DNA of 16,632 bases from an uncultured Deinococcales bacterium (GCA_964247135.1 CAXTTL010000100.1:1-16632), one strand, 5' to 3'; positions 1 through 16,632 are shown, numbered from the stretch's first letter. The notes: generated by a model not told the origin, from the sequence alone. Numbers and translations are program-made.

Positions 1-162
1 TCAGTGTACGTCAGGGTTGCGTTTTAAAAATGAATGGGTTTTGGCTTCAATTGTCCGAGCTTCAAACAAGGCTTTTGCGTTGGTCAGTAGACTGTTCATA
101 CAGATAAGCACGTGTTCTTGAGTGGGGGATTTGAAAATTTAAGGTTTTGACCAACTCGAGTT

Positions 163-1047
163 TCAAGCCAGATCAAACTTGAATAATGTGTGTGCCGGTT
201 TGTGGGTTTCGATCAGATCGCGCAGCAAATCCAGGGTCAAGGCTTCGGGTTTTTTGTTCAACTTGACCCAGAAGACAAACGCCTCTTTGGGGTCTTCGGT
301 CACGTCGGGCGTCAAACCCGTGCAAATTTCGATCATGCGTTCCAGACCGTATTTGGTGCCGCGCCAATGGTAGAGGGTCATGGCTTCGGCAACCAGTTCT
401 CGCTTGCGGCGTTCGGGCATCCTCGAGTAGACCTGAATGCTGAGCCAGCCACCCAGCCACTCGAGCAATTCGGCGGGGGCGGTGCGCGGGTCAAAATAAA
501 ATTCGATGGCGTCGGTGCGCCACTCGAGTGGCTCCCAGACGGTTTCAAAAATTTTCATGAAGCGGTTCATGAAGTCCGACTCTTGAAAGATCACGGGCAG
601 GTCCTGGGTGTACATGGCTTGATCGCTCAAGACAAACGGCGTCGGGTGCTTTGGGCGCGGTGCAATGTCGGGCGCTATCAACAAATCAAACTCGAGTTCT
701 GGGGCTTCCTCGGAGACTGGGACCTCTTCAAAATCTTGGCTGATGCTGTCGCGGTAGGTGATTTTGAACGGACCAATTTGCAACAGCACGCCCTTGATGA
801 GCGGGTACGGTTGATTGGCGACCAGTTTGTAACCCGCCACGAATGTCCCGTACTGACTGCCGAGGTCTGTGATGAGCACCGCCTGTTCGGTGACGTTCAA
901 TTCGGCGTGGCGCTTGGACACCAGCGGCAGGTTTAAGGGCAAATCGTTTTCAGGGGTGCGCCCAATGGTCAGCACCCCTGGTTGCAGTGTCAACGTGTTG
1001 ACCACGCTGCCTTGCAGTTGAACCACCAATTGTCCAGTGCTGGTCAT
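163..1047 (-). CDS. FHA domain fused to a phage tail / baseplate wedge (P2 gpI-like, TIGR02242-type) domain; probable contractile injection system component
   Basis: N-terminal FHA motifs (LTIGR, VSKRHA, ITDLGSQYGTFV, LQIGPFKITY). Acidic/Pro-rich linker. C-terminal LPVIFQESDFMNRFMKIFE..YFDPRTAPAELLEWLGGWL..LYHWRGTKYGL..HKPAHT pattern recognised as phage tail protein I family. SD-like GGGAGAGG directly upstream of ATG 1047. Confidence 0.85.
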   Translation of the reverse strand: MTSTGQLVVQLQGSVVNTLTLQPGVLTIGRTPENDLPLNLPLVSKRHAELNVTEQAVLITDLGSQYGTFVAGYKLVANQPYPLIKGVLLQIGPFKITYRDSISQDFEEVPVSEEAPELEFDLLIAPDIAPRPKHPTPFVLSDQAMYTQDLPVIFQESDFMNRFMKIFETVWEPLEWRTDAIEFYFDPRTAPAELLEWLGGWLSIQVYSRMPERRKRELVAEAMTLYHWRGTKYGLERMIEICTGLTPDVTEDPKEAFVFWVKLNKKPEALTLDLLRDLIETHKPAHTLFKFDLA

Positions 1048-1101
1048 GCCTCTCCCGTTCCCCTCGAGCTGAAGTTGCTGTGGTTCATGTCCGACGAGAT
1101 T

Positions 1102-1107
1102 ATTTTA
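1102..1107 (-). promoter_or_regulatory. possible -10 element (TAAAAT) for the FHA-tail gene
   Basis: Reverse complement of 1102-1107 is TAAAAT; a second TAGAAT lies at 1122-1127. No clear -35. Confidence 0.3.
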
Positions 1108-1172
1108 CGATACCGCTCGAGATTCTATCCTCATTTTCCTTATGGGATGGTTTGGCTGTGGCAGCGGGCGGT

Positions 1173-1185
1173 GGCGACACCCTAC
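1173..1185 (-). repeat. degenerate GTAG-type REP remnant
   Basis: Reverse complement GTAGGGTGTCGCC matches the REP start GTAGGGTGCGCC (5278, 16514) with a one-base insertion. Confidence 0.35.
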
Positions 1186-1188
1186 TCA

Positions 1189-1224
1189 AAAGCAATCAGT
1201 ATTTTGATTTTCTTTGATTGACTT
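1189..1224. promoter_or_regulatory. putative DeoR-family operator (10-bp repeats)
   Basis: TGATTTTCTT (1205-1214) and TGATTGACTT (1215-1224) in tandem, plus an inverted copy TGATTGCTTT (reverse complement of 1189-1198); overlaps the -35 box. Confidence 0.55.
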
Positions 1225-1246
1225 TTAGCTTCAAATTCAGTAACCT
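1218..1246 (+). promoter_or_regulatory. sigma70-type promoter of the sugar operon
   Basis: TTGACT (1218-1223), 17-bp spacer, TAACCT (1241-1246). Confidence 0.7.
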
Positions 1247-1290
1247 TGGCAAACTCTAGACATCTTCAACCCGTTTTGAAAGGACTCGCA

Positions 1291-2055
1291 ATGCTCGAGC
1301 AACGGCTTCGTACCATTCAAGAACACCTGTTTGCCCGTGGTGTTTTGAACATTGACGAGCTGGTCGAAATCACGCGCTCCTCGCCCGCCACGGTGCGCCG
1401 CGACCTGAGCAAACTCGAGCAAGGCGGTGTGATTGAGCGAACCCACGGTGGCGCTCGGCTGGCAGAGTCGAGCAACCATGAAGTCGCCTTCGGCTTGCGC
1501 GAGGGTGAAAATTTCGAGGTCAAACGCGCCATCGGTCGCGCCGCCCACGCCCTGTTAAAACCTGGCAGTACCGTTTTAATGGATTCTGGCACCACCGTTT
1601 TACAGCTCGCCAAAGCCGTCCGTCTCGAGCCGATGCCGCTGACCGTGATCACCAACGGGCTGGCGTTGGCGCAAGAACTGGTCAGCGTGCCAGAAGTGAA
1701 TGTGATCTTGCTGGGCGGTACATTGCGTGCCGACAACCTCTCGAGCGTCGGACCGTACACCGAAAAACTGCTCTCCGAATTCTGGTGCGATCAACTGTTT
1801 TTGGGCGCGACCGCCATCGGTCTGGACGAAAACCTGACGACCCTCGACGCGAATGAGGCAAGCATCAACCGCAAAATGCTGGAACGCACCAAGCAAAGTA
1901 TTTTGCTGCTCGACTCGAGTAAATTTGGTCACAGCGCACCGTACCGTGTCACCAACCTGCTGGGCATTTCGCAGATCATCACCGATTCAAAACTGAACAC
2001 GGCATGGTCGAACCGTTTGGAAACCCTGGGTGTTCATTTCAAAACCGTTCGTTAA
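1291..2055 (+). CDS. DeoR/GlpR family transcriptional regulator (AgaR/LacR-like)
   Basis: HTH SPATVRRDLSKLE..RTHGGA; sensor domain DSGTT, VITN, LLGG, DSSKFG. Start moved from 1246 to ATG 1291 (SD AAAGGA upstream; 1246 lies inside the -10 box). 254 aa. Confidence 0.93.
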   Translation: MLEQRLRTIQEHLFARGVLNIDELVEITRSSPATVRRDLSKLEQGGVIERTHGGARLAESSNHEVAFGLREGENFEVKRAIGRAAHALLKPGSTVLMDSGTTVLQLAKAVRLEPMPLTVITNGLALAQELVSVPEVNVILLGGTLRADNLSSVGPYTEKLLSEFWCDQLFLGATAIGLDENLTTLDANEASINRKMLERTKQSILLLDSSKFGHSAPYRVTNLLGISQIITDSKLNTAWSNRLETLGVHFKTVR

Positions 2056-2085
2056 CTCGAGTGTCGATTCATCAGGAGGCGCACC

Positions 2086-3015
2086 ATGACCGCTTCAACC
2101 GCTGCAAACAAACTCGAGAAACGCCGCAGCAAAGGCTCGAGCCTTCGCCGCGAGGAGGCACTGTGGGGTTTGGCACTGATTCTGCCGAGCACCTTGGGCA
2201 TTGTGATTTTTGCCATTTTACCAATTCTGGGCAGTTTTGGGATTTCGTTTACCGACTGGGGCGGCTTGAGCCTGCCCAACTGGACGGGTCTGGAGAATTA
2301 CAAACAGGCGCTCGGCGATTCCAAAGCCATCGAATCGATTGAACGCACCCTGATTTTTACCGTGATTTCCGTGCCCCTGGGTTTGGTGGTGGCGGTTGTG
2401 CTGGCGGCACTGATTCAAAATTTAAAGCTCGAGAAAGTCAAAACCTTTTTTCGCACGCTGTATTACCTGCCGATGGTCACAATTGGCGTGGCGACCGCGC
2501 TCTTGTTTAAAGTCTTGTTCACCGCCCAGGGACCAATCAATCTGCCACTCAATTTGTTCGGCATTCAGGGACCCGCCTGGCTCGACTCGCCAGATACGGT
2601 ATTGACCGCCATCGCCATTTACAGCGTTTGGCAGGGCGCAGGCTCGAGCATCATTTTGTTCTTGGCGGCGCTCGCCAACGTGCCCAAAGAACTCTACGAG
2701 GCGGCGCAGATCGACGGCGCTCAACCGTTTCGGCTGTTCTGGCACATCACCCTGCCCATGATTAGCCCCACGATTTTTCTGGTACTGATTTTATCTTTGA
2801 TCGGCAGCCTGCAAGTCTTTGAGGCGGTGCTGGTCATGACCAAAGGCGGTCCTGGCGACTCGAGTATGACAATTGCGATGTACATCTACAAGACCGGTTT
2901 TAATTACTTCAAAATGGGTTATGCCACCGCGCTGGCATGGTTGCTTTCCCTGGCGCTGGTGGTCTTGATCGTCTTGCAGTGGCGCTTGCAAAAATCCTGG
3001 GTGCATTATGAATAA
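2086..3015 (+). CDS. carbohydrate ABC transporter permease (CUT1, MalF/UgpA-like)
   Basis: Multiple TM helices, GLENY, FRTLYYLP, EAA loop ELYEAAQIDGA, MGYATA; SD AGGAGG at 2074-2079. Confidence 0.95.
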   Translation: MTASTAANKLEKRRSKGSSLRREEALWGLALILPSTLGIVIFAILPILGSFGISFTDWGGLSLPNWTGLENYKQALGDSKAIESIERTLIFTVISVPLGLVVAVVLAALIQNLKLEKVKTFFRTLYYLPMVTIGVATALLFKVLFTAQGPINLPLNLFGIQGPAWLDSPDTVLTAIAIYSVWQGAGSSIILFLAALANVPKELYEAAQIDGAQPFRLFWHITLPMISPTIFLVLILSLIGSLQVFEAVLVMTKGGPGDSSMTIAMYIYKTGFNYFKMGYATALAWLLSLALVVLIVLQWRLQKSWVHYE

Positions 3016-3862
3016 TTCTGTCCAGGACAAGAATATCCTCCCTCGAGCAAGGCGCGAACGTTGGAGCATTGTTATCGTTTTAGCGCTGGGCAGCATTTTG
3101 ATTTTTGTGCCGTTTTACTGGATGGTGACGATGTCATTCAAAACCCCAGACGAGGCATATCGCTGGCCACCGACCTTGCTGCCCGAAACCTGGACGCTCG
3201 AGAATTTTAAAGGTTTGTTCAATACCATTCCGTTTTTAAGAATGTTCTGGAATTCATTCTGGACTTCATTTTTGATTGCCTCACTGAACATTTTGACGGG
3301 TGCCCCTGCGGCGTATGCCTTCGCACGACTGCGCTTTCCAGGCAAGGGCACGTGGTTTGGGGCACATCTGCTGTCCATGATCGTGCCCTGGCAAATCACC
3401 ATCATTCCGGTATTCTTGCTGATCCGGTTTTTCGGTTGGTACGACAGCTATATGGCACTAATCGTGCCGAGCATCGCCAACGGCTTTAGCGTTTTCATGC
3501 TGTATCAATTTTTCAGAAGCCTGCCCAAATCGCTCGAGGAAAGTGTACTGATTGACGGCGGCAGTTGGTTCACGGCGCTGCGCCACATTGCCCTGCCCAC
3601 CTCGAGCGGGGCGCTTGCGGCGGCATGGCTGCTGGCATTCCTGGGCAACTGGCAATCGTTTTTGTGGCCACTGATTGTGCTGCAATCCGAAGAAAAAATG
3701 GTGCTGCCGGTTGGCTTGCTCTACCTGCAAAATCAGTTCTCGGTCAATGTTCCAGTCCTCATGGCGGGCGCAACCCTGTCGGTGCTGCCCACGATTGTTG
3801 CCTATATTTTCTTGCAACGTTATTTAACCGATGCCGCCATCACCAGCGGCGTGAAAGGCTAA
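3008..3862 (+). CDS. carbohydrate ABC transporter permease (CUT1, MalG/UgpE-like)
   Basis: PFYWMVTMSFK, AAYAFARLRFPG, EAA-like SLEESVLIDGG, WQSFLWPL, C-terminal GVKG; overlaps the previous stop by 8 bp. Confidence 0.95.
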   Translation: MNNSVQDKNILPRARRERWSIVIVLALGSILIFVPFYWMVTMSFKTPDEAYRWPPTLLPETWTLENFKGLFNTIPFLRMFWNSFWTSFLIASLNILTGAPAAYAFARLRFPGKGTWFGAHLLSMIVPWQITIIPVFLLIRFFGWYDSYMALIVPSIANGFSVFMLYQFFRSLPKSLEESVLIDGGSWFTALRHIALPTSSGALAAAWLLAFLGNWQSFLWPLIVLQSEEKMVLPVGLLYLQNQFSVNVPVLMAGATLSVLPTIVAYIFLQRYLTDAAITSGVKG

Positions 3863-3875
3863 ACCATCTTCCAAG

Positions 3876-3902
3876 CTCGAGCCGCAAAACCTCGAGCCGC
3901 AA
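3876..3902 (+). repeat. short direct repeat CTCGAGCCGCAA x2 (15-bp period)
   Basis: Exact 12-bp copies at 3876-3887 and 3891-3902, intergenic, just before the SD of the binding-protein gene. Confidence 0.8.
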
Positions 3903-3916
3903 GCCCAGGAGGTCGT

Positions 3917-5200
3917 ATGAAAAAAGTGTTCGTACTCTCGCTCGCGCTAGCTGGTGCCGCCGTGGTGGCTGCCGCCATCGCCCAGAATTCGGCTGTGACC
4001 ATTCAGTACGCCACCTGGGACGAATCGCGCCGTCCGGTGGACGAAAAAGTGATCAAAGCCTTTGAAGCCTCGCACCCGAACATCAAGGTCAAATACAACA
4101 TCGTGCCCTGGGATGCCTACTGGCAAAAAGCCGCCGCCATGACGGCTGGCGGGGTGACCTTTGACGTGATGTGGATGGATTTGAACAACCTGCCATTTTA
4201 CGTCTCACAGGGGGCGCTCGAGCCGCTGGACATGACGGCTGCCGAAAAGAAGGTGATTCCCGCCGCAATGCTCGCCCCGTACCAAACCAGTTCGGGCAAG
4301 GTTTACGGTTTTCCACTCGGACCCCAGGCGGTCAGCGTCTACGTCAACCGCGATCTGTTTAAAAAACGTGGCGTACCCGTGCCGACCAAAAGCTGGACCT
4401 GGGATCAATTGGTTGCCGCCGCACAAAAACTAACCTATATGGACGGCAACAAAAAAATCTGGGGCATCAACGGGCAAGATTTGCAGATTGACCTCGAGTA
4501 CGGCATGAGTTTCTTTTACACCTTCGGCGGTACAAATATCATCAAAAAAACCGCCACGGGTTATGTTTCCAACCTCGACTCGAGCTTTAAAAGCACCGCC
4601 CAAAAACTCTATGACCTGATTTTCAAATACCATGTTGCGCCGTCCTCCAAAGAGGTCACGCAGGCTGGATACCAGATTTTCCTGGCTGGACAAATGGGCA
4701 TTTACATCGAAGGCACCTGGATGACGGGCGTGCTCAACGGCAATCCCAAATTGAACTGGAGTTACGCCCCGTTCCCAACCCTGAAGGCGGGCGATAAACC
4801 AAGAGCCAGCAGCAGCGCCCACGCCCTGGTGATTCCCAAAGGCGCAAAAGAAAAAACCGCCGCGCTCGAGTTTGCCCGTTACGTGACGACCAATGTTGAA
4901 GCCCAACAATTGATTTCCAACAATGGCTTGCTCGCCACCAATGCCGACGCCTTTAAGAGCCAGTACAGCAAATCCTTACCTGGTCGCAACAGTGAGGTCA
5001 TCCTCGAGCAACTCAAAACCGGCGTGATCATCAATTCTGACGTTCGATTGGTCAGCAATTTGCCCGAGGTTTTGGGCGCCATGAACACCGCCTTTAACCT
5101 GGCTTGGACGGGCAACGGCAAGCTCGAGGATGCCATCAAAAAAGCCAGCACCGACATGGATGTGCTCTTGAAGCAAGCCAAGGTGCTCGAGTTTAAATAA
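3917..5200 (+). CDS. sugar ABC transporter extracellular solute-binding protein (family 1)
   Basis: Sec signal peptide without lipobox Cys (MKKVFVLSLALAGAAVVAAAIAQ); FEASHPNIKV, GKVYGFP, VYVNRDLFKK, WTWDQL motifs; SD AGGAGG at 3907-3912. Confidence 0.95.
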   Translation: MKKVFVLSLALAGAAVVAAAIAQNSAVTIQYATWDESRRPVDEKVIKAFEASHPNIKVKYNIVPWDAYWQKAAAMTAGGVTFDVMWMDLNNLPFYVSQGALEPLDMTAAEKKVIPAAMLAPYQTSSGKVYGFPLGPQAVSVYVNRDLFKKRGVPVPTKSWTWDQLVAAAQKLTYMDGNKKIWGINGQDLQIDLEYGMSFFYTFGGTNIIKKTATGYVSNLDSSFKSTAQKLYDLIFKYHVAPSSKEVTQAGYQIFLAGQMGIYIEGTWMTGVLNGNPKLNWSYAPFPTLKAGDKPRASSSAHALVIPKGAKEKTAALEFARYVTTNVEAQQLISNNGLLATNADAFKSQYSKSLPGRNSEVILEQLKTGVIINSDVRLVSNLPEVLGAMNTAFNLAWTGNGKLEDAIKKASTDMDVLLKQAKVLEFK

Positions 5201-5215
5201 TTTTTTTGAAGATTG

Positions 5216-5239
5216 ATGATTGCCGTGATTTGTTGATAT
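5216..5239 (+). pseudogene. relic duplicate of the 5' end of the pfkB-family gene (MIAVIC-stop)
   Basis: ATGATTGCCGTGATTTGTTGATAT versus ATGATTGCTGTAATTTGTTTACAT at 5398-5421; 20/24 identical. Confidence 0.7.
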
Positions 5240-5277
5240 TCCAAGCTTGAACTCTCACTCAAGCCATTTCCAAATTC

Positions 5278-5376
5278 GTAGGGTGCGCCTCTTGACCCTT
5301 ACAACAGCACCTAGCGGGCTTGGGTCGCCGTGCGCACCGTCTGGAAAGTGCTCTTGGTGCGCATGGCGCACCCCAC
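5278..5376. repeat. inverted pair of GTAG-type REP sequences (REPIN-like), left copy interrupted
   Basis: Left: GTAGGGTGCGCC (5278-5289), ~40-bp interruption, GTGCGCACC (5330-5338). Right: 5356-5376, reverse complement GTGGGGTGCGCCATGCGCACC. Intact relative at 16514-16534. Confidence 0.8.
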
Positions 5377-5397
5377 ACCTCATGTTCTGGAGCTTCA

Positions 5398-6270
5398 ATG
5401 ATTGCTGTAATTTGTTTACATCCTGCCATTGACCGCACCCTCGAGTTGAATACTGCGCTCGAGGTGGGTGGTTTAAACCGTGCGGCTCGGGTGTTTGAAC
5501 GCCCTGGCGGCAAGGGTGTGAATGTGGCGTCGGTGCTGACCAGTTTGGGCGCCGAGGCTTGCGTGATTTTGCCCGTGGCTGGCAGCAACGGCATGAAGCT
5601 CGAGCAATTGCTTCAAAAACAAAACATTTCGAGTTCGGTAATTTCTGTGCCTGGTGAAACCCGAGAGTGCCAGGCGATTTTGGACGGTTCCCAAACGACA
5701 GAAATCAACGAGTCTGGTCCAAGCCTCGCGCCGGATGACCTTCTCGAACTCGAGGCGTTGATTCCAAGTTCGGCACGTTTTGTGGTGCTTTCGGGCAGTT
5801 TGCCGCCAGGTTTGGATGTGCTCGAGTTTGGGGCATTTGTCAAGCGTTTGAGTGTTCGTTACGGGCTTGTGGTGGACACCTCGGGAGTAGCATTAAAAGT
5901 CGCACTCGAAAATGGAGCTGATTTGATCAAACCCAACCAAAGCGAACTCGAGCAATTGGCTTTGACACCCAAGCAACTTTTTCAGAAGTTTGGCACTCGG
6001 GTGCTCCATTCCAAAGGCGCGAATGGACTCGAGTATGTTGGTCCTGAAGGCGGTTTTTCTCAAACCTCGAGCCAGATTGAAGTCATAAGTTCTGTTGGTG
6101 CGGGCGATGCCACGTTGGCAGGATTTTTGTTCGGTCTGGCGCGAGGACGATCAATTCAAGAATCGTTACGTTTTGCCAATGCTTGCGGTGCTGCCGCCTG
6201 TCTCGAGCCTGTTGCGGGCGTGGTCAACCCCCTGAACATCGAGAACTCACTTGGGGTTGTTCATGCCTGA
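5398..6270 (+). CDS. PfkB family hexose-phosphate kinase (1-phosphofructokinase / tagatose-6-phosphate kinase LacC-like)
   Basis: HPAIDRT, PGGKGVNVA, LSGSLPPG, VVDTSG, IKPNQSEL, SVGAGDA. Start at ATG 5398 with SD GGAG (5389-5392); the longer 5320 start runs through REP DNA. 290 aa. Confidence 0.92.
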   Translation: MIAVICLHPAIDRTLELNTALEVGGLNRAARVFERPGGKGVNVASVLTSLGAEACVILPVAGSNGMKLEQLLQKQNISSSVISVPGETRECQAILDGSQTTEINESGPSLAPDDLLELEALIPSSARFVVLSGSLPPGLDVLEFGAFVKRLSVRYGLVVDTSGVALKVALENGADLIKPNQSELEQLALTPKQLFQKFGTRVLHSKGANGLEYVGPEGGFSQTSSQIEVISSVGAGDATLAGFLFGLARGRSIQESLRFANACGAAACLEPVAGVVNPLNIENSLGVVHA

Positions 6271-9455: not shown

Positions 9456-9577
9456 GGTCAATGCTGAAATCGGGGCAGGACATGTCAGGCTTGTCACCAC
9501 CGCAAGCTCGAGTTTAAAGATTTATTCGTCCTCAATCCGGACGTGTCAAGCACAGACTTGATGCGTGGGAGGTAGTC

Positions 9578-11200
9578 ATGTTCAATTGCTTTTCTTCACT
9601 CTTAATACTCAGCTTTGCCCTAGGGTCATGCTCGAGCCTGCCTATGGTCGTTGACTCGCCGCTCGAGCTTCAAACCAACAAAACCAATACCGTCAAATAT
9701 ACCGCCAGCAACAAGGATTTCCCCAACCCCGAACGCGGGTTTTACGCCGACTCGGAGTATTACCAAGCTTCACCGGCAACGCTGACAACCGCCCAATTAA
9801 AAGCCCTGATCCTCGAGAAAGCCAGCGCGGGTTATGCGGTCAGTTTGTTGCACCGCAGTTACTTTCTGCCCGAACTCATCGACACCCCAAAGCTTCCCAG
9901 CTCGTTTCTCAACACCGTGCGCCAAGACTTGCAGGCGGCTCGAGCCGCAGGGCTGAAAGTGATTTTGCGTTTTGCCTACCGCACCATTGCGCTCGAGGAT
10001 TGCAATGGCTTGCCACCCGCCGAACAACCTGCCTGCATCGCCAAAGCCAAAGCCGAGCACGACCCAACCAAACAAACCATCCTCAACCACCTCGAGAATT
10101 TGCGCGGTGTGCTCTCGAGCTTTGAAGACGTGATCGCTTACGTTGATGCGGGTTTGCTCGGCACCTACGGCGAGTGGGCGTATGCCACCGACCAAGGCGT
10201 GGGTTCGTTGCTCTCAGGATTTGCAAACAGCCTCGCGCCAGACCCACAATACGGTTATTCAGACGGTAACGTGCCAAACGCCAACACCAAAGAAATTATT
10301 GCCAAGTATCTGGACGTATTGCCCGAAACCCGAGCCATCGCCATTCGCACCCCAGAACAACGCGTGATGCTGCTCGAGGATTCGTTTGATCCTCGGGTTT
10401 GGAATCCCAAAAAGACCACGATTACAGATGAGACTGCTTTTGAAGATTCGGCATTGGCACGACTTGGGGCGCACAACGATTGCTTCCTCGCCTCGAGCGA
10501 CGATTTTGGGACGTACTATTACGCCAATTATCCTGGCGTGGACCTTGCGACGCAAATTCAAAAAGAAAAAGACTACCTCAGCGCCAACAACTTGTTCGTC
10601 CCGATGGGCGGTGAAACCTGCGCTGTGAATGCCGATGTCTCGAGTGCAGGTTATCCCGCTTACGCCAAAGCCGAACTGCGCAAAATGCGTTGGAGCACCT
10701 TAAACACCGATTACAACCAAGATGTCCTGACGGCAATGGGCGCAACGTTGACCGACGCCAAGAAAAACTTGGGTTACCGTTTTGTGCTGCAAAGCTCAAG
10801 CGTGCCAAGCAAAGCCGTGCGCAATGAAAACATCAACATCAAGTTCACCGTCAAAAACGAAGGCTACGCCAGCCCGTTCAACCCGCGCAAGCTCGAGGTG
10901 GTGTTTGTCAAAACGGGCAGCGCCCCAATTCGCCGTGAGGTCAAAATAGACCGTGAACACAACACCGACCCACGTTTTTGGAAACCGCTCGAGCACAAGG
11001 TTGTCAGCCTGAGTGTCAAAGCCCCGAGTGATGCTGGAACGTATTCGGTGTATGTAAATTTACCCGATCCTCTGTTGCCAAACGATGCGCGTTACAGCAT
11101 CCGTTTTGCCAACGCTGGTTTGTGGGATGAAAGCAAAATCACCGCGATTCAAGCCAGCGCTGCATTCAACACATTGAATCAAAGCATTCAAATTCCTTAA
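9578..11200 (+). CDS. lipoprotein with DUF4874/DUF4832-type domains (putative glycoside-hydrolase-like barrel plus beta-sandwich)
   Basis: Lipobox LGSC (Cys18); motifs FPNPERGFY, ARAAGLKVILRFAY, AGLLGTYGEW, RLGAHNDCFLAS..DFGTY, PMGGET, LGYRF, YSIRFAN; SD GGGAGG at 9567-9572. Confidence 0.82.
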   Translation: MFNCFSSLLILSFALGSCSSLPMVVDSPLELQTNKTNTVKYTASNKDFPNPERGFYADSEYYQASPATLTTAQLKALILEKASAGYAVSLLHRSYFLPELIDTPKLPSSFLNTVRQDLQAARAAGLKVILRFAYRTIALEDCNGLPPAEQPACIAKAKAEHDPTKQTILNHLENLRGVLSSFEDVIAYVDAGLLGTYGEWAYATDQGVGSLLSGFANSLAPDPQYGYSDGNVPNANTKEIIAKYLDVLPETRAIAIRTPEQRVMLLEDSFDPRVWNPKKTTITDETAFEDSALARLGAHNDCFLASSDDFGTYYYANYPGVDLATQIQKEKDYLSANNLFVPMGGETCAVNADVSSAGYPAYAKAELRKMRWSTLNTDYNQDVLTAMGATLTDAKKNLGYRFVLQSSSVPSKAVRNENINIKFTVKNEGYASPFNPRKLEVVFVKTGSAPIRREVKIDREHNTDPRFWKPLEHKVVSLSVKAPSDAGTYSVYVNLPDPLLPNDARYSIRFANAGLWDESKITAIQASAAFNTLNQSIQIP

Positions 11201-11204
11201 ACCT

Positions 11205-12971
11205 TCACTCGAGTTCGCCCGACCACAACCGCCGCATTTCCGCGCTGGTTTCCAGCAGTTCCTCGAGCCTGCCAACCCCCGTAATACAACCGTTCTCGAG
11301 CACAATGATGTTGTCGGCGCGTTTTAAGGCGGGCTTTCGATGCGAGACAACCAAACAGGTGGTCTCGCTCGAGTGTTCAAACACCCGATCCCAAAGTTGC
11401 GCTTCGGTGTTGACATCCAGGGCGCTCGAGAGGTCGTCGAAGACCAGCAATTCTGGTTCGCGCACGAACATTCTGGCGGCAGCCGTCCTCGAGACTTGAC
11501 CGCCCGAAAGCTTGACGCCCTTGCTGCCGATTTTGGTTTCAAAACCGTCTTCAAAGCCCAGCAAGTCTTGCTCGAGCACCGCGTTTTTGACGGCTTGCTC
11601 GAGTTTTTTGGGGTCGGCTGGAAGTCCAAGCAAAATGTTTTCGCGCAATGTGCCGCTAAACAGCACTGGCACTTGCGAGGTGTAGGCGACCCGAGGCGGA
11701 ATCAAATCTTGCGCTGTTGCTGGTTCTCCATTCCAGAGCACCGTTCCAGCTTGAGGCTCGAGCAAGCCCAGCATGGCGCGAAGGAGCGTGGTTTTGCCCG
11801 AACCAATGCGTCCAGTGATGACCGTAAAACTGCCGCGCTCGAGGGTCAAGTTGATGTTCTTGATGCCTCGAGCGCTGGTTTCAAACGTATAACCCAAATC
11901 GCGGATTTCGAGGCGTTGCAAGATGTCAGCTTCGGTTTTGACGCTAGGCTCGAGGTTTGGAGTTTTTCCTGAAAGCGCAATTGGATGTGGTTCGATCAGT
12001 TTCTTCTGGTTTGCACCTTGCAGCAATTCGATCATGCGTTTGATGCTGACCCCCGTTTGACGCATGGTGCTCATAAACATTCCAAAAAATTCAGTGGTGT
12101 GCGCTACCCGCTCGAGGTAACTGGCAAAGACCGCAAAATCGCCGATGGTAAAGGTTTTCTCGCGCATTCCCGAGGCTGCCAAGAGCAAAATAAAGCCCGT
12201 GCCAAATTGCACCACATTGCCGTAAATCGCATTTAAAACTTGGGTTTGAACACTGTCGCGCAACAGCGCCGCACGGCGGGCGTCGCCAAGGCGTTTGAAA
12301 TGCGCCATCACCCGAGCTTCCGCACCCGCAACTTGAATGCCCTGCACCGCGCCGAACATTTCACCCAGGGCGCCCGTGACTTTGGCGGTGCTTTCACGGC
12401 TTTGCTCGCGCAGTTTCTCGAGTTTGCTGCCATACAGGTACGTCAGACTCATGACGATGGCGAGCGGCACAAACACCAGCAGGGTGATGCGGGCGTTGAT
12501 CGAAAATAAAATTGCCAAGGCAACCACCAAAAACACCACTCGAGAGCTGATATCGAGCGTCCAGTCGCTGGTCTCCTCGACCATGAATGGATCATCGCGC
12601 ATTGTACTGATGGCTTCGCCCACGCTGACGGGCAGCGCACGTGCGCCTGGACGCTCGAGGATGTGCGCCAGAAGGTTGCGGCGCAAAAGAGCACTGATGC
12701 GAAAGCGCCAGGGAATGTCGGCTGCCATGCCGCCCACAATCGATAAAGCTCGAGCCAGCGCGACCACCAGCACCAGGGCAATGATGGACGTGAGGTTCAA
12801 CTCGAGCGGACGTTTCTCGAGGGTGTCAAAAAAGAGTTTGGCGATCAAACCCTCGAGAAGCGGAATGATGAACACCAGCCCCCACATCAGGGTATTCAGG
12901 GCGTACAACGCGCCCTGTTGCCAGATCATGCTTTTCACGACATGCCAGGTGCTCATGGGCTTGCCGCTCAT
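11205..12971 (-). CDS. ABC exporter, fused TMD-NBD subunit B (non-canonical Walker B)
   Basis: N-terminal TM domain; Walker A GRIGSGKT, signature LSGGQ, Walker B LLVFDD (Asp in place of the catalytic Glu), VSH switch; ATGA overlap with subunit A. Confidence 0.93.
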   Translation of the reverse strand: MSGKPMSTWHVVKSMIWQQGALYALNTLMWGLVFIIPLLEGLIAKLFFDTLEKRPLELNLTSIIALVLVVALARALSIVGGMAADIPWRFRISALLRRNLLAHILERPGARALPVSVGEAISTMRDDPFMVEETSDWTLDISSRVVFLVVALAILFSINARITLLVFVPLAIVMSLTYLYGSKLEKLREQSRESTAKVTGALGEMFGAVQGIQVAGAEARVMAHFKRLGDARRAALLRDSVQTQVLNAIYGNVVQFGTGFILLLAASGMREKTFTIGDFAVFASYLERVAHTTEFFGMFMSTMRQTGVSIKRMIELLQGANQKKLIEPHPIALSGKTPNLEPSVKTEADILQRLEIRDLGYTFETSARGIKNINLTLERGSFTVITGRIGSGKTTLLRAMLGLLEPQAGTVLWNGEPATAQDLIPPRVAYTSQVPVLFSGTLRENILLGLPADPKKLEQAVKNAVLEQDLLGFEDGFETKIGSKGVKLSGGQVSRTAAARMFVREPELLVFDDLSSALDVNTEAQLWDRVFEHSSETTCLVVSHRKPALKRADNIIVLENGCITGVGRLEELLETSAEMRRLWSGELE

Positions 12972-14770
12972 ACCAGCACCTCCTCCAAACCCGTGCGCCT
13001 GAGTTGCGCGAACCTCGAGTTTGGATCGTGCCCAAGGATTTTGGTGCTGCCATGCTCGAGGATTTTTCCATCCTCGAGAATCAAGATTTCGTCGGAACGC
13101 AAAATGGTTTGCAAACGGTGCGCGATGATGATGGCGCTGCGACCCAACAACAGTTTGTTAACCGCCCGCTCGAGCAGCGCTTCGGTGGCGGGGTCGAGGC
13201 GGCTGCTGGCTTCGTCGAGGATGATGACGCTGGGGTTGCGCAAGAAAACCCGTGTGAACGCCAGCAATTGTGCCTCGCCAGCGCTGAGGTTGGCGCTCGA
13301 GAGTTCGGTGTCGAGTTGTTTGGGCAAGCTGCGCACCCAATCGTGCAAGCCCAGTTCCTCGAGCGCAGCCCAAATTCGGGCGTCGCTTACGGTTGGATCG
13401 AAGAAGCTTAAATTCTCGCGGATGCTGGCTTGAAACAGTTCAACATTTTGTGTGACCAGCGTGACGCGACTGCGCACCTCCTCGAGTTTGGCACTGGTGA
13501 GCGGGATGCCGTTCAAGCGAATCTCGCCGTGTTGCGGATCGTAAAATCGCATCAACAATCTTGCCAGCGTGGTTTTGCCGCTGCCCGTGCGCCCCAACAA
13601 GCCAAGCACTTTTCCAGGCGCAAGCTTGAACGAAATATTCTCGAGCACTTTTTCAGGGTTGGTATCTTCAAGCCCTGGCTCAGGTTTGACCTCATCCTCG
13701 TAGCCAAAATGCACCCCACGAAACTCCACCTCGAGCGCCCGTTCAGACCAGTTCGCGCCAGGTCCGTCAAGCAATTTGGATTTGGTCGCCAGCAGTTCAG
13801 TCACCCTCGAGATGCCCGCGTCGGCGCGTTGCAATTCTTGGAGTTGATTGCGAATTTGATCGAGCGGCTCGGCGAGCAATCTGGTGTACTGGTAAATCAA
13901 ATAGACCGTGCCGAGCGAAATGACCTTGTGCTGATAGAGCGGCGCGGCAACCCCGAATGCCAGCGCCGTACCGAGCGCCATCAAAACCTCGAAGACCACC
14001 CACATGCTGCCGCCGAGCATACTGCTGCGCCAGACCACCGGATACCAGGTTTTCAGGCGTTCAACAAAACTGCGCATCACATATGGCGTCGCACCAGAAG
14101 AGCGAATGTCTTCAGTGCCCGAAAGTTGCTCGCCGATAAAACCAAAGAAAATTGCGTTTTGCTCGCGTACCGCCTTCCAGTACGGCGTGCCAAGGTTGCG
14201 AACTCGAGCCAAAACCAGCATTGCCAGAATCGAAAAGACCGTGAGACTGATGCCGATGCGCCAATCCTCGAGATACATCACGACCAACACGCCCAAGAGC
14301 AGCAAAATGTTGCCGCCAAGGTGAATGCTTAAATTGGAGAAAAACGCGGCAAGCGTGCTGACATCGCCGTCCACACGTTCGATCAACTCGCCAGGGGTTC
14401 GGGCTTTGTGAAATGAAAGATCAAGTTTGAGGCAATGCTCTGCCAAATTTGCCCGAAGTGCGTTGGTTGCCGTCCAACCAACTCGAGTGCTGAAATAGGT
14501 CGCGCCGACGTTCAAAACCTGCTGAAAAAAAGACGCGCCGATGAATACGGCGGCGGCTTGAATCAGTTCGGATTGTGCGCCGCCCTTTTGCGCGGTGTCC
14601 ATAAAAAACCTGACGATTTGCGGATTCAAAAGCTGTAAACCCACACTGAAAAGCAAACACACCGCCATCAAGACCACGCTGGCACGCTGCGGTTTCAAGT
14701 ATTCCTCGAGCAGCCCAAAATACTGGCGCACCGGAATTTGAACTTTGGGGGGTTTGACGACGGCGCTCAT
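12968..14770 (-). CDS. ABC exporter, fused TMD-NBD subunit A (degenerate signature motif)
   Basis: TM domain; Walker A GRTGSGKT, signature LSAGE, Walker B IILDE, IAH switch. Start set to ATG 14770 because the 14857 start would overlap the divergent gene. 600 aa. Confidence 0.92.
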   Translation of the reverse strand: MSAVVKPPKVQIPVRQYFGLLEEYLKPQRASVVLMAVCLLFSVGLQLLNPQIVRFFMDTAQKGGAQSELIQAAAVFIGASFFQQVLNVGATYFSTRVGWTATNALRANLAEHCLKLDLSFHKARTPGELIERVDGDVSTLAAFFSNLSIHLGGNILLLLGVLVVMYLEDWRIGISLTVFSILAMLVLARVRNLGTPYWKAVREQNAIFFGFIGEQLSGTEDIRSSGATPYVMRSFVERLKTWYPVVWRSSMLGGSMWVVFEVLMALGTALAFGVAAPLYQHKVISLGTVYLIYQYTRLLAEPLDQIRNQLQELQRADAGISRVTELLATKSKLLDGPGANWSERALEVEFRGVHFGYEDEVKPEPGLEDTNPEKVLENISFKLAPGKVLGLLGRTGSGKTTLARLLMRFYDPQHGEIRLNGIPLTSAKLEEVRSRVTLVTQNVELFQASIRENLSFFDPTVSDARIWAALEELGLHDWVRSLPKQLDTELSSANLSAGEAQLLAFTRVFLRNPSVIILDEASSRLDPATEALLERAVNKLLLGRSAIIIAHRLQTILRSDEILILEDGKILEHGSTKILGHDPNSRFAQLRRTGLEEVLV

Positions 14771-14778
14771 GAGCCTCG

Positions 14779-14784
14779 AGTGTA
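14779..14784 (-). promoter_or_regulatory. -10 element TACACT, 8 nt before the ABC exporter start (near-leaderless transcript)
   Basis: Minus strand reads GGTACACTCGAGGCTC-ATG; only a weak GAGG close to the start, no well-spaced SD. Confidence 0.55.
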
Positions 14785-14851
14785 CCGTTTGAACTGACGC
14801 TCGAGAATGGCATGATGGCTTACTCGGGCTTAAATCAGGATAAGCTTTGTC

Positions 14852-16486
14852 ATGCAAAACCTGGCTCGAGTTGTTGGTTTATTGATGCTGTTGTGGGTTC
14901 TCGAGCCTGTTGGGTTGCCAACCAAGGCTCAAACCACAAACCTCTTGACCGCGCCACCGATGGGTTGGAATTCTTGGAATGCGTTAGGTTGCAACATCGA
15001 CGAGAATAAAATTTTGGCTCAAGCAAAAGCGATGGTCACGTCAAATATGCTCGAGGTGGGCTACAAGTTTGTGGTGATGGACGATTGCTGGTCGTTGAAG
15101 TCTCGAGACGCGAATGGCAATTTGGAGGCTGACCCGCAAAAATTTCCGCATGGCATTAAAGCCCTGAGTGACGCGATTCACGCCTTGGGTTTGAAGTTTG
15201 GCATGTACTCGGATCGCGGTGCAAAAACCTGTGGCGGCTTTCCTGGTTCGCAAGGCTTCGAGTTGCAAGACGCCAAACAATTCGCGGCTTGGGGCGTGGA
15301 TTACCTGAAATACGACAATTGCAACGCCGTGCTGGACGAAAAAAACCAGTATCAAACCATGCAAGCCGCCCTCAAATCCGTGCCTCGAGAGATTGTGTTG
15401 AGCGTTTGCTCGTGGTGGTTTAGACCGTTTATTCCTGGCATTGGCGACCTTTGGCGCACGACCTGGGACATCCGTGACGCTTGGGATTCCAAAGCCTTGT
15501 CCTCGAGCATCGATGACCAAAGTGTCATGAGCATTAGCGATACCAACAACCTTTACGCCAGTTACGCCAATCTCGGGCATTACAACGACCCCGACATGCT
15601 GATGGTCGGCAATTACGGGCGCGGCGGCTTGGGTGGTCCTGGCATGAACGACCTCGAGTACCGTTCGCATTTTGGCTTGTGGGCAATCATGAGCGCTCCG
15701 CTGATCGCGGGCAATCAACTCTCGAGCATGAACGCCCCGACGCTCGAGACGCTGACCAATTCGGAAGTGATTGCGGTCAATCAAGACCCCGCCGACACGC
15801 CAGCGCACACCCAAGGCGTTCGGGTGCGACGCAATGGCAATGCTGAGGTTTGGGCAAAATCGCTCTCGAGCGGAGGCGTTGCGGTGCTCCTGTTAAACCG
15901 AGGCGAGCAAACGTCCGATCTTCGCGCCAACTGGTCTGACCTGGGGTTGCTCGAGGGCGGCGCGAGTGTGCGCGACTTGTGGCAGCATCAAGACCTGGGC
16001 ATGTTCGATGCCAGTTTTACGGCTCGAGCTGTTCCTGCGCACGGTTCGGTAATGCTGGTGGTGCGCGGCAAAAAACCCGAGCCAGAAGTGCTCAAAACCA
16101 TCAGTCTCGAGGCGGAATCAAAGGTCAACACGCTGCTCGAGCCTGCCAGTGTTCAAGATTGCAAAACTTGTTCGGGAGGAGCGTATGTCACCAACATTCG
16201 CGGCGAGGGTTCGTTAACATTCAACAACGTTTTTGTCTCGCGCACGGGTTCACTGCCAGTCACCATCTATTTCACCAATCCATCCGAGCAAAAACTCTTA
16301 AAGATCACGACCAGCGCTGGGGCAAACATTGTGGTGCGGGTTCACTCGAGCGGCGACGGCGACAAGGTGGAAAGCTTGCGTCTAAACCTGGAACTCGAGC
16401 GTGGCGAAAACACGATCACGTTTTCCTTGCCTGGAGCGAAAGCGCCCAGCATTGACCGAATCGGTTATCAAACGGGTTCAAAATGA
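14852..16486 (+). CDS. secreted GH27 glycoside hydrolase (alpha-galactosidase / alpha-N-acetylgalactosaminidase family) with C-terminal CBM35/CBM6-like module
   Basis: Signal-peptide-like N-terminus; PPMGWNSWN, DDCW, DYLKYDNC (nucleophile), WRTTWDI (acid/base), NDPDML, SAPLIAGN, VRDLW; C-terminal LEAE..CKTCSGG..V..TFNNV module. Confidence 0.93.
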   Translation: MQNLARVVGLLMLLWVLEPVGLPTKAQTTNLLTAPPMGWNSWNALGCNIDENKILAQAKAMVTSNMLEVGYKFVVMDDCWSLKSRDANGNLEADPQKFPHGIKALSDAIHALGLKFGMYSDRGAKTCGGFPGSQGFELQDAKQFAAWGVDYLKYDNCNAVLDEKNQYQTMQAALKSVPREIVLSVCSWWFRPFIPGIGDLWRTTWDIRDAWDSKALSSSIDDQSVMSISDTNNLYASYANLGHYNDPDMLMVGNYGRGGLGGPGMNDLEYRSHFGLWAIMSAPLIAGNQLSSMNAPTLETLTNSEVIAVNQDPADTPAHTQGVRVRRNGNAEVWAKSLSSGGVAVLLLNRGEQTSDLRANWSDLGLLEGGASVRDLWQHQDLGMFDASFTARAVPAHGSVMLVVRGKKPEPEVLKTISLEAESKVNTLLEPASVQDCKTCSGGAYVTNIRGEGSLTFNNVFVSRTGSLPVTIYFTNPSEQKLLKITTSAGANIVVRVHSSGDGDKVESLRLNLELERGENTITFSLPGAKAPSIDRIGYQTGSK

Positions 16487-16513
16487 ATTTGAAGACTCGA
16501 GCTTCTTGGTTTG

Positions 16514-16534: not shown

Positions 16535-16591
16535 GTGCACTCCAACTGTATTTTCCTTGCCAAACACAAAAATCTGCCGTTGTACTTGCTT

Positions 16592-16632
16592 CCCTCATCC
16601 CCGACCCTTCTCCCAACTTCAGGAGAAGGGAG
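16592..16632 (+). repeat. CCCTCATCCCC-type extragenic palindromic repeat, possibly truncated by the window edge
   Basis: CCCTCATCCCC leader, then stem CCCTTCTCC (16605-16613), 8-nt loop, GGAGAAGGG (16622-16630). Confidence 0.6.

Follow-up and report, generated by a model that had tools for sequence, protein, structure and literature searches.

CTCGAG sites in the window

The window analysed here is a stretch of 16,632 nucleotides, contig C100 of the genome of an uncultured Deinococcales bacterium (G000; 5,091,702 bases in 386 contigs, 84% complete, guanine-plus-cytosine (GC) content 52.7%), and the element under study is the palindromic hexamer CTCGAG, which recurs throughout it. The gene model of the window comprises 13 genes, with Pfam support for 13 open reading frames (ORFs). 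A minus-strand gene (163-1047) encodes a 294-aa protein with an FHA domain and a phage tail protein domain (Tail_P2_I / Mu Gp48), and is adjoined by a sugar-utilisation cluster with a DeoR regulator, ABC permeases, a solute-binding protein, a PfkB kinase, a BadF-type ATPase, a SIS protein, a Gfo/Idh/MocA oxidoreductase, a DUF4874/DUF4832 protein and an alpha-galactosidase. The minus-strand ABC transporter gene was started at ATG 14770, which is the likelier start because a TTG start would make two divergent genes overlap head to head; the nearest named matches of its product are labelled 'MAG: Deinococcales bacterium' (87-91% amino-acid identity).

CTCGAG occurs exactly 132 times in the window, first at position 155 and last at 16496-16501. 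A first-pass annotation of this DNA had counted about 132 copies, and had proposed a highly iterated palindrome (HIP) system similar to HIP1 of cyanobacteria. In 200 dinucleotide-preserving shuffles the mean number of copies was 3.10 (standard deviation 1.74, maximum 9), and the excess is therefore ~43-fold; the strong excess reported in the annotation stands, and its size (~30-fold, with ~4-5 copies expected) was too low. Under the 13-gene model, 77 sites lie in phase CTC-GAG, 15 in phase xCT-CGA-Gxx and 29 in phase xxC-TCG-AGx, one lies in a gene overlap, and 10 are non-coding. The six codon examples that had been singled out translate as claimed (1294, Leu-Glu; 1914, Asp-Ser-Ser; 3042, Pro-Arg-Ala; 8164, Ser-Arg-Glu; 8203, Ser-Arg-Gly; 9196, Thr-Arg-Glu), and the ten non-coding coordinates were all recovered, those at 14775 and 14800 being dependent on the ATG start (Table 1). 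Non-coding sites had been said to have the same density as coding sites; they are indeed abundant, but the spacers of the window are denser, with 1 site per 92 bp (10 sites in 916 bases) against 1 per 129 bp in coding DNA. The sites at 3876 and 3891 are 15 bp apart, with CCGCAA directly after each.

Table 1. CTCGAG sites of the window referred to in the text (positions counted from the first nucleotide of the window)
Feature	Position	Strand	Remark
Dispersed CTCGAG array, 132 copies	155..16501		Shuffles expect 3.1 ± 1.7
Non-coding site	155..160		3 nt past the stop of the minus-strand FHA/phage-tail-like gene (163-1047)
Non-coding site	1063..1068		Spacer 1048-1245
Non-coding site	1116..1121		Spacer 1048-1245
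Non-coding site	2056..2061		Directly adjoins the TAA stop codon that ends the DeoR-type regulator gene (1246-2055)
Non-coding site, first of a pair	3876..3881		Between the ABC permease and solute-binding-protein genes
Non-coding site, second of the pair	3891..3896		
Non-coding site	9507..9512		Spacer 9456-9577
Site in divergent promoter region	14775..14780		Non-coding with ATG 14770; inside the longest ORF with TTG 14857
Site in the same divergent region	14800..14805		Non-coding with ATG 14770; inside the longest ORF with TTG 14857
Non-coding site	16496..16501		10 nt past the stop of the alpha-galactosidase gene (14852-16486)
Example of phase CTC-GAG	1294..1299	+	Leu-Glu
Example of phase xxC-TCG-AGx	1914..1919	+	Asp-Ser-Ser
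Example of phase xCT-CGA-Gxx	3042..3047	+	Pro-Arg-Ala

Abundance in the whole genome

The whole genome contains 33,925 copies of CTCGAG in 5,091,702 bases, i.e. 1 per 150 bp (6.7 per kb). It is the commonest hexamer, 2.3-fold ahead of the runners-up, which are words overlapping CTCGAG; its 18 one-letter variants have 96-2,216 copies each. A fourth-order Markov model gave an observed-to-expected ratio (O/E) of 1.24, which is meaningless for this word, as the motif also dominates the 5-mers, and it was replaced by a second-order model of the site-masked genome. With the latter, 564 copies were expected, and the 60-fold excess is an abundance characteristic of HIPs. Against base composition, the O/E was 21-26 in every GC bin of 2-kb windows (~25-fold). 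Outside CTCGAG, the inner word TCGA occurs 20,685 times, near the ~19,800 expected from base frequencies, and the unit is therefore the full hexamer.

The sites are spread over the entire genome. The gaps between them are near-exponential (coefficient of variation, 0.96; longest gap, 2,644 bp) with a 3-nt beat, and every 3-kb window holds sites (minimum 3, mean 19.9). The largest site-free gaps are islands with a GC content of 27-40%, and two methylase islands have no site. Depletion in recently acquired DNA, which the first-pass annotation had put forward for examination, was not found in this form, the low-GC 2-kb windows (19 windows) keeping an O/E of 20.7-24.2.

Distribution in Deinococcales

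The lineage survey covered 201 Deinococcales genomes, with densities per kb calculated from rounded genome sizes. Family and genus labels (f1-f5, g1-g30) are anonymous, and the names 'Deinococcus-like' (g7, from genome size) and 'Thermus-like' (g9) were assigned by inference. The family of the window (f1) is represented by 19 genomes in five genera; these are metagenome-assembled and 57-94% complete, and mobile DNA may be missing from them. All 19 carry the motif (12,028-35,442 copies, 4.3-6.8 per kb, 1 per ~150-230 bp), which is thus present lineage-wide as in HIPs. Since the gene GC content of the family spans 52-62% and the motif occurs throughout, it is not tied to one base composition.

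Over the 201 genomes the density ranges from 0.01 to 6.8 per kb. The Deinococcus-like genus g7 (f3) has 26-942 copies in 51 genomes, so that the survey called for in the annotation found the motif in every genome of the family and few copies in g7. The Thermus-like genus g9 (f5) has ~1 per kb, and genera g13, g22 and g24 (f5) as well as several f2 genera have 2-3.4 per kb. In samples of these intermediate genomes, the O/E was 6-10, the density was similar outside long ORFs, and the Leu-Glu dipeptide stood at 1.4-1.66 against 0.8-1.1 for Glu-Leu, a weaker form of the f1 pattern. In the high-GC genomes of f4 and g9, the sites in the isoleucyl-tRNA synthetase gene (IleS) are nearly all in phase CTC-GAG; the moderate CTCGAG counts of these two groups are ordinary codon usage.

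One f2 genome (G027; genus g12, 3.0 Mb) has an octamer form, 2,645 of its 3,131 CTCGAG copies being part of GCTCGAGC. In a 48-kb sample of G027, GCTCGAGC is the commonest octamer and occurs in all phases and outside ORFs. As a separate observation, the octamer is almost absent from two genomes of g9 (G022, 5 of 1,966 CTCGAG copies; G026, 19 of 2,203), where ~10% would be expected from flanking-base frequencies.

An artefact of assembly, binning or linkers was considered; nothing spoke in its favour, and it is refuted, with a negligible probability. The density is the same in the 19 family genomes, including the single-contig 5.09-Mb genome G011, and the sites fit the reading frames of conserved genes and line up when genomes are aligned.

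Coding phase and effect on proteins

Genes of G000 were called with a crude procedure (ORFs plus codon score), which gave 4,015 genes on 79.6% of the genome and missed short and truncated ones. With these calls, the 26,814 coding sites are divided into 16,839 in phase CTC-GAG (63%), 3,862 in phase xCT-CGA-Gxx and 6,113 in phase xxC-TCG-AGx, the last two making up 37% (9,975 sites). The short spacers (2,050 gaps of 10-300 bp between called genes; 208,558 bp, GC 46%) contain 1,995 sites, 1 per 105 bp, and are denser than genes; composition predicts 41. Occurrence in all coding frames and in non-coding DNA is also a property of HIPs.

We considered a codon-pair or dipeptide preference, i.e. Leu-Glu written with favoured CTC and GAG codons, which the first-pass annotation had rejected. 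The predominance of phase CTC-GAG among coding sites, and among the f4 and g9 IleS sites, is what such a preference would give. Against it stand the 9,975 coding sites in the other phases, the denser spacers, and the number obtained when synonymous codons were shuffled within genes (3,754 ± 46), which the observed number exceeds 7-fold. CTC accounts for 25% of Leu codons and GAG for 46% of Glu codons, yet CTCGAG writes 78% of Leu-Glu pairs. Glu-Leu is not enriched (1.007 times the expectation), and synonymous positions inside the sites are conserved (see below). Dicodon-preserving shuffles, which had been named as a refutation test, are uninformative because they keep CTC-GAG pairs by construction. 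The codon-pair explanation is already refuted for f1, and we give it almost no weight.

The earlier statement that the process is strong enough to shape protein sequence is borne out by dipeptide frequencies. In the 4,015 called genes there are 21,689 Leu-Glu pairs against 9,189 expected (2.36 times), a surplus of ~12,500 pairs, and Ser-Ser stands at 1.63 times. The alignment of a single protein gave the same picture. A match to rpoC was sought in G000 (84% complete) by a sequence motif and none was found, and IleS was taken instead, with orthologues from 19 genomes (loci L147-L176). Eight f1 genes have 15-33 sites each, with 22-26 Leu-Glu against 8-13 Glu-Leu, and those of g1 use all phases; in the two genes from g7, the number of sites is 0-1 and Leu-Glu (9) is rarer than Glu-Leu (14). 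The IleS gene of G000 has 20 phase CTC-GAG sites, 18 of which could be aligned to ten genomes of f2, f3, f4 and genus g9. Leu-Glu was present in at least half of the ten at just two of the 18 sites, and in 27 of the 166 outgroup cells at the sites, while other dipeptides of the G000 protein were identical in 27.5% of cells. The usual occupants were Phe-Glu, Pro-Glu/Asp, Val-Gln, Lys-Glu, Leu-Asp and similar pairs. Most of the sites thus arose through the replacement of amino acids where the protein tolerates change. Because they align codon for codon with non-motif codons of relatives, propagation has been by substitution and not by insertion, to which the mostly single-transition differences between genomes and the uncoupled flanks (see below) also point.

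A side observation concerns the IleS of one g13 genome (G030, f5), which is 64% identical to that of G000, against 47-51% for other non-f1 genomes including g9. Either this gene was transferred, or g13, which is moderately enriched in CTCGAG, is nearer to f1 than the labels suggest.

Conservation and turnover

Retention of sites was measured between 400 kb of a genome of the same genus (G005) and G000 (319,265 bp aligned, 85.9% identity). The sites kept were 970 of 1188 in phase CTC-GAG (other hexamers, 0.445), 165 of 251 in phase xCT-CGA-Gxx (0.444), 363 of 479 in phase xxC-TCG-AGx (0.444) and 66 of 94 in intergenic DNA (0.386). Overall, retention was 0.66-0.82 against 0.39-0.44 in the controls, a conservation of the kind known for HIPs; the comparison with orthologous DNA proposed in the first-pass annotation thus gave retention beyond that of control hexamers, also between genes. 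Within sites, synonymous third positions were 0.81-0.92 identical against a background of 0.714, and intergenic positions 0.92-0.96 against 0.78. The window alone gave the same picture within the genus, and against other f1 genera (~71% identity) it kept 56 of 98 phase CTC-GAG sites, compared with 0.17 for controls.

Six genomes of the genus form a star-like group with 84-87% pairwise identity, in which 16 single-lineage gains and 25 single-lineage losses of sites were counted. Single-base differences at coding sites between G000 and G005 are mainly transitions (C1>T, 54; T2>C, 63; C3>T, 48), and no transition hotspot at CpG was seen among the site losses of this pair, transitions being even over the half-site. 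In the masked Markov model of G000, the one-letter neighbours of CTCGAG have an O/E of 0.8-3.2, the transition neighbours being highest, with no overall depletion, and these levels are as expected for the decay products of a large pool of sites. The deamination neighbours are likewise not depleted (CTTGAG/CTCAAG, O/E 1.38; TTCGAG/CTCGAA, 1.97).

Methyltransferases, repair and restriction enzymes

HIP1 has a cognate methyltransferase accompanying the abundant motif, according to the accessible part of Elhai 2015 (PMC4390886), and the first-pass annotation had suggested an orphan CTCGAG/TCGA methyltransferase together with a Vsr-like nuclease. G000 has at least 10 DNA methyltransferase candidates. 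One is a near-copy of M.PvuII (PDB 1boo, E 1.5e-149), and CAGCTG occurs 15 times in the genome; another is a near-copy of M.HaeIII (PDB 1dct, E 6.5e-124), and palindromic hexamers containing GGCC are nearly absent. Two candidates are MmeI-like. The methylase L048 (G000:C189:4856-5632) lies in an island with a GC content of ~0.40 and no CTCGAG. The second C5 enzyme of G000 has close orthologues just in G001, G002 and (50%) G007 among 30 relatives, a Dam-like methylase (L127-L133, on C320 in G000) is present in 7 of the 19 family genomes, and an N6 enzyme of 634-798 aa is present in G000, G005 and G011 and not in G007, G009 and G013. The C5 enzymes of seven family genomes are mostly 25-35% identical, apart from one pair at 74% and one local match at 48%. 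The Eco57I/TaqI-like and N6_Mtase matches in five family genomes were considered as a shared enzyme and rejected, as they are diverse HsdM-like or type IIG proteins.

No methyltransferase orthogroup (PF00145, PF01555, PF02086, PF02384, PF07669) is shared by G000, G005, G007, G009, G011 and G013, a negative to be read with the points that specificity is unreadable from sequence, that non-orthologous enzymes may share a specificity, and that the genomes are 57-94% complete. A cognate orphan enzyme wherever the motif is abundant, as with HIP1, was accordingly not found in these f1 genomes. G011 (a single contig of 5,085,195 bp with 23,515 sites) lacks PF01555 enzymes altogether; the one C5 enzyme that it encodes is located in an island with few sites, and G000 has no orthologue of it. 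The methylase gene L126 of G011 (G011:C1:4982631-4983683) lies in a low-GC stretch (0.40-0.42) with no CTCGAG and adjoins a gene for an HD-CE domain protein; L048 and L126 are probably recent imports. As to repair, Vsr was found in none of the 19 family genomes and MutH in just two of them, and no TaqI_C domain was found in G000. The XhoI endonuclease (PF04555) was absent from all 19, while the same search found six carriers elsewhere in the order. The proposed link to an orphan methyltransferase and Vsr thus received no support.

Of the six genomes with a PF04555 gene among the 201, five belong to f4 and the sixth, whose copy is broken, to f2, with none in f1, f3 and f5. At all five intact loci the endonuclease gene is adjoined by one for a PF01555 methylase of 340 aa, and these methylases are 71-79% identical among loci. 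Relatives of this XhoI-linked methylase (E <= 1e-40) are present in 35 of the 201 genomes (13 of 23 in f4, 20 of 28 in g9, the single g30 genome, and G027), and in none of the 19 f1 genomes or the 24 genomes of g13, g22 and g24. Because its carriers are f4, g9, g30 and G027 and not f1, the enzyme, which is the one methylase family linked to CTCGAG by its gene neighbourhood, does not track the hyper-abundance of the hexamer. In g9, the enzymes of the 20 carriers are closely related to the TTHA0409 methylase of T. thermophilus, on which the name 'Thermus-like' rests. The PF01555 methylase of G027 (loci L368-L371, L168) is TTHA0409-like, with 63% identity to the XhoI-linked one and a close match to PDB 2zie (E 6.5e-124), a methylase type for which no specificity was found stated in the papers searched; its gene is flanked by an asparaginase gene and by a 209-aa ORF that has no Pfam family, and G027 has no XhoI endonuclease.

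These results bear on a methylation ratchet of the kind that Elhai proposed for HIP1, in which a CTCGAG/TCGA methylase would mark the site and methyl-directed or very short patch (VSP)-like repair would convert near-cognate words. In its favour are the wealth of methyltransferases in f1 genomes, the pairing in G027 of the octamer GCTCGAGC with an XhoI-linked-like methylase and no endonuclease, and the analogy with HIP1, whose motif and inner sequences are recognised by methylases (accessible parts of PMC4390886 and PMC13756078). However, the identifiable enzymes of G000 are PvuII-like and HaeIII-like, with their own sites scarce, and the others are patchy across the family; G011 does without a PF01555 enzyme and has its single C5 enzyme in a site-poor island; Vsr, XhoI and the XhoI-linked methylase are missing from f1 and MutH nearly so; and that methylase occurs in Thermus-like and f4 genomes where CTCGAG counts are merely at codon level. 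The neighbour words are not depleted, there is no CpG hotspot, and TCGA outside the hexamer is about as frequent as expected. We regard the ratchet as unlikely.

Restriction normally drives the avoidance of sites, and GAGCTC, GGCC-containing words and CAGCTG are among the scarce words of G000. With many near-zero palindromes and many methylases, f1 shows the marks of very heavy restriction. Among side observations on this point, GAGCTC (the SacI word, in which the half-sites of CTCGAG are swapped) has no copy in the 5.09 Mb of G000 and 0-25 in most family genomes. Other scarce palindromic hexamers of G000 are GGGCCC (1 copy), CGGCCG (3), AGGCCT (4), CGTACG (5), GGATCC (7), CCGCGG (11), CAGCTG (15) and GCATGC (17), and two of these avoidances have a counterpart in the PvuII-like and HaeIII-like methylase genes. 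The Dam-like methylase is 84% identical between G000 and G011, which belong to different genera, against 76% between G000 and G005 of one genus, which, together with its presence in just 7 of the 19 family genomes, suggests that it was transferred within f1.

A Chi-like or defence-related self marker would be a further use of the word: on meeting CTCGAG, a translocating nuclease or a defence system would be attenuated or switched, so that self DNA rich in the tag would be spared or repaired and tag-poor foreign DNA would be degraded. The dense, orientation-free distribution, the retention of sites, the heavy restriction landscape of f1 and the location of the largest site-free gaps in low-GC islands fit with this. 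Nevertheless, there is no candidate nuclease, the low-GC windows keep the same O/E after correction for composition, and known Chi sites are asymmetric and strand-skewed; we consider this use quite improbable.

Flanks, spacing and gene boundaries

In intergenic DNA the flanks of the sites show a preference for A at -3 (48%), A at -2 (40%) and G at -1 (35%), giving a faint 12-bp palindromic consensus, AAG-CTCGAG-CTT. The preference is weak (at most 0.19 bit per position) and stronger in spacers. The two flanks are uncoupled (G at -1 and C at +6 occur jointly in 12.5%, where the product of their frequencies is 14.9%), so CTCGAG does not form the centre of longer hairpins. Pairs of sites closer than ~20-30 bp are under-represented in G000, and a distance of 6, which would create GAGCTC, was never seen. 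Pairs 8 bp apart (CTCGAGNNCTCGAG) number 11, compared with 87 pairs spaced by 7 bp and 115 spaced by 9 bp. No helical period of 10-11 bp was found in the spacing of sites in G000, just the 3-nt coding period and a slow trend.

Around called starts the density is lowered (positions -10 to +20), and it is highest just after stops (16.7 per kb in the first 10 nt). A site starting exactly 2 nt past the stop (T[AG]A-NN-CTCGAG) was observed in 188 of 3,823 genes, ~4 times the level at neighbouring positions, and the window site at 2056-2061 is a near example of this placement. In tRNA genes, which total 5,129 nt, 10 sites were counted; this density of 1.95 per kb compares with 10.9 per kb in the DNA that flanks them. 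A role as a terminator was considered and rejected: the window has 17 consensus terminator-like sites against 24 ± 5.4 in shuffles, and few include the motif.

Some of these features, together with the scatter of sites over all 3-kb windows and the intergenic retention, would suit an abundant dimeric protein of the nucleoid or condensin-loading type that binds (AAG)CTCGAG(CTT), selection keeping the sites for compaction or segregation. The scarcity of close pairs is what a footprint would give, the weak 12-bp consensus is palindromic, and a chromosome-structure role has been proposed for HIP1 in the accessible part of Xu et al. 2018 (PMC5861425). Against such a protein are the missing helical period, the lack of a candidate, and the Deinococcus-like f3 relatives, which have a similar biology and do without the motif. 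We hold this explanation to be rather doubtful, but worth serious consideration.

A putative protein-read tag

It is in our judgement practically certain that the CTCGAG palindrome is real, conserved, present throughout the lineage and a property of the DNA level. A directional, site-specific force acts on the DNA irrespective of coding context, creating sites by substitution and retaining them. Each copy would carry a small advantage, the ~15-25-fold excess over the neighbour words corresponding to a scaled bias of ~3, so that the strength would be modest and pervasive; the force can be selection or a transmission bias.

On balance we lean slightly towards a tag read by a protein, rather than methyl-directed repair. 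It ranks above the methylation ratchet because the parts for repair are missing where the motif is strongest, and because the genome shows neither a depletion of neighbour words nor the signature of deamination. The reader would be a sequence-specific, probably dimeric, DNA-binding protein. As for its use, we tentatively suggest a self-DNA tag in natural transformation and recombination, which is preferred among tag uses because of the placement in all frames and at tolerant positions, the enrichment behind genes, and the recent transformation data on HIP1. Fragments rich in the tag would be taken up, protected or recombined preferentially; site-gaining alleles would spread and site-losing alleles would be replaced, the 'molecular drive' that has been proposed for the uptake sequences of Haemophilus and Neisseria and, lately, for HIP1. 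The uptake-like features are the occurrence in all frames, the location at less conserved protein positions and the highest density just 3' of genes. ComEC is present in 18 of the 19 f1 genomes and in all 12 genomes of other families (30 of 31).

Several points weigh against this use of the tag. No reader protein was identified, and ComEC does not discriminate because all five families have it, those lacking the motif among them. The specificity offered by a hexamer is low, and the density of CTCGAG is ~8-fold above that of known uptake sequences, which are 9-12 nt long, non-palindromic and present at ~1 per kb; DNA uptake in Thermus is reported to be sequence-independent. A structural footprint accounts for the scarcity of close pairs no less well than uptake does. 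The density in 3-kb windows is over-dispersed (standard deviation 5.7 against a Poisson value of 4.5), i.e. the sites are not evenly spaced, and the predicted lack of the tag in imported DNA was not seen in G000 after correction for composition. The 16 gains against 25 losses indicate a turnover near equilibrium and not an ongoing sweep. The octamer of G027 with its XhoI-linked-like methylase keeps the methylation link alive. Finally, the nucleoid explanation is almost as likely as the transformation tag because of the short palindromic word, the high density, the universal ComEC and the scarce close pairs.

With these reservations, we offer as a plausible but still tentative view that Deinococcales evolved graded CTCGAG palindromes independently of cyanobacteria (the hexamer of f1, weaker forms in some genera of f2 and f5, and the octamer GCTCGAGC of G027), and that the f1 form is maintained without a dedicated methyltransferase and read by a dimeric protein as a self tag. 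If the reader-driven self tag is correct, HIPs in general would be caused by the action of a reader, to which methylation is accessory, with a pressure that doubles the Leu-Glu content of the proteome.

Comparison with known systems

To our knowledge, highly iterated palindromes have so far been known just from cyanobacteria. They have been an unexplained curiosity there for ~30 years, with an abundance of HIP1 that is 15-300-fold over Markov expectation. Like HIP1 (GCGATCGC) and the alternate HIPs, CTCGAG is a short, GC-rich palindrome that is hyper-abundant genome-wide and lineage-wide, lies in coding DNA (all frames) and non-coding DNA, and has spread by substitution. The proposal of a HIP1-like system outside cyanobacteria is thus supported by abundance, by occurrence in all frames and between genes, by propagation through substitution, by conservation, and by presence throughout the lineage. 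Conservation beyond controls, with codons more conserved inside the motif, is another likeness to HIP1 as described in the accessible part of Xu et al. 2018 (PMC5861425). Unlike HIP1, CTCGAG is a hexamer and not an octamer, has another sequence, belongs to another phylum, is denser (1 per 150 bp against at most ~1 per 350 nt), and has a large effect on the proteome (Leu-Glu, 2.36 times). HIP1 has now been proposed to be a signal for uptake that increases transformation in a way dependent on methylation (PMC13756078; bioRxiv 10.1101/2024.09.10.611283; accessible parts), and cyanobacteria alone are treated in the accessible part of Rodriguez-Cruz et al. 2026 (PMC13756078). Elhai 2015 (PMC4390886), searched by term in its accessible text, has no mention of CTCGAG, Deinococcus or Thermus, and our search of the open-licence literature, supplements aside, brought up no description of CTCGAG as an iterated word, nor of any such palindrome in Deinococcota.

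Uptake signal sequences (USS) of Pasteurellaceae and DNA uptake sequences (DUS) of Neisseriaceae have a shown uptake bias, and for DUS the receptor is known; they are 9-12 nt long, asymmetric and present at ~1 per kb. CTCGAG resembles them in its thousands of copies in both orientations and all frames, its tolerant protein positions, its enrichment just 3' of genes and its DNA-level bias, in a lineage that has ComEC. Unlike them, it is a 6-nt palindrome at ~7 per kb, and in core and density it therefore falls outside the USS/DUS pattern.

VSP repair at the Dcm site CCWGG of E. coli raises the frequency of the methylated site by repair and lowers that of its deamination product; the effect is modest, well below 2-fold, and needs Dcm and Vsr. 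CTCGAG differs in its 25-60-fold excess, in the absence of Vsr from the family genomes and in its undepleted neighbours, and VSP repair is thus not matched. With XhoI restriction-modification it shares the word, and true XhoI systems exist in the order (6 of 201 genomes). Unlike the XhoI carriers (f4, and the broken copy in f2; ~0.7-1.8 per kb), f1 has 4.3-6.8 per kb and neither the endonuclease nor the methylase.

CTCGAG is hence a second, independent and denser HIP case in another phylum; a single-lineage curiosity therefore becomes a comparative problem, and the proposals made for HIP1 become testable for generality. That the methylase, Vsr and MutH parts were not found where the motif is strongest constrains HIP models. 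The order offers a natural gradient, with extreme, moderate and octamer forms and lineages with very few copies. Some lineages of cultured size are probably among the moderate carriers, and phylogenetic profiling and bench tests are feasible; for the latter, AAGCTCGAGCTT is an oligonucleotide sequence that carries CTCGAG, as the counterpart of scrambled controls. The motif is also a striking case of a DNA-level force rewriting proteins, and in practice calls for caution when metagenome-assembled genomes of this kind are binned, fitted with codon models or searched for motifs.

Additional observations

Viral contigs with three sites at most 30 bp apart were searched, and among the matches listed (at least 80 loci) there was no evident phage of f1. 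The viral loci are high in GC (0.58-0.71 among the 15 densest listed), have up to 6.1 sites per kb, and often have plentiful GAGCTC. Among the sequencing runs listed there were six, all in the form of contigs, and each contained 0.05-0.11 of the words sampled. In the window, two intergenic repeats, at 5275-5377 (~100 bp) and 16551-16632 (~80 bp), recur in many contigs of G000 and of the same genus with 76-95% identity. Both repeat-bearing spacers are free of CTCGAG, and the repeat at 16551-16632 ends the contig. A GTAGGGTGCGCCTC-like word lies inside the repeat at 5275-5377 and upstream of that at 16551-16632.

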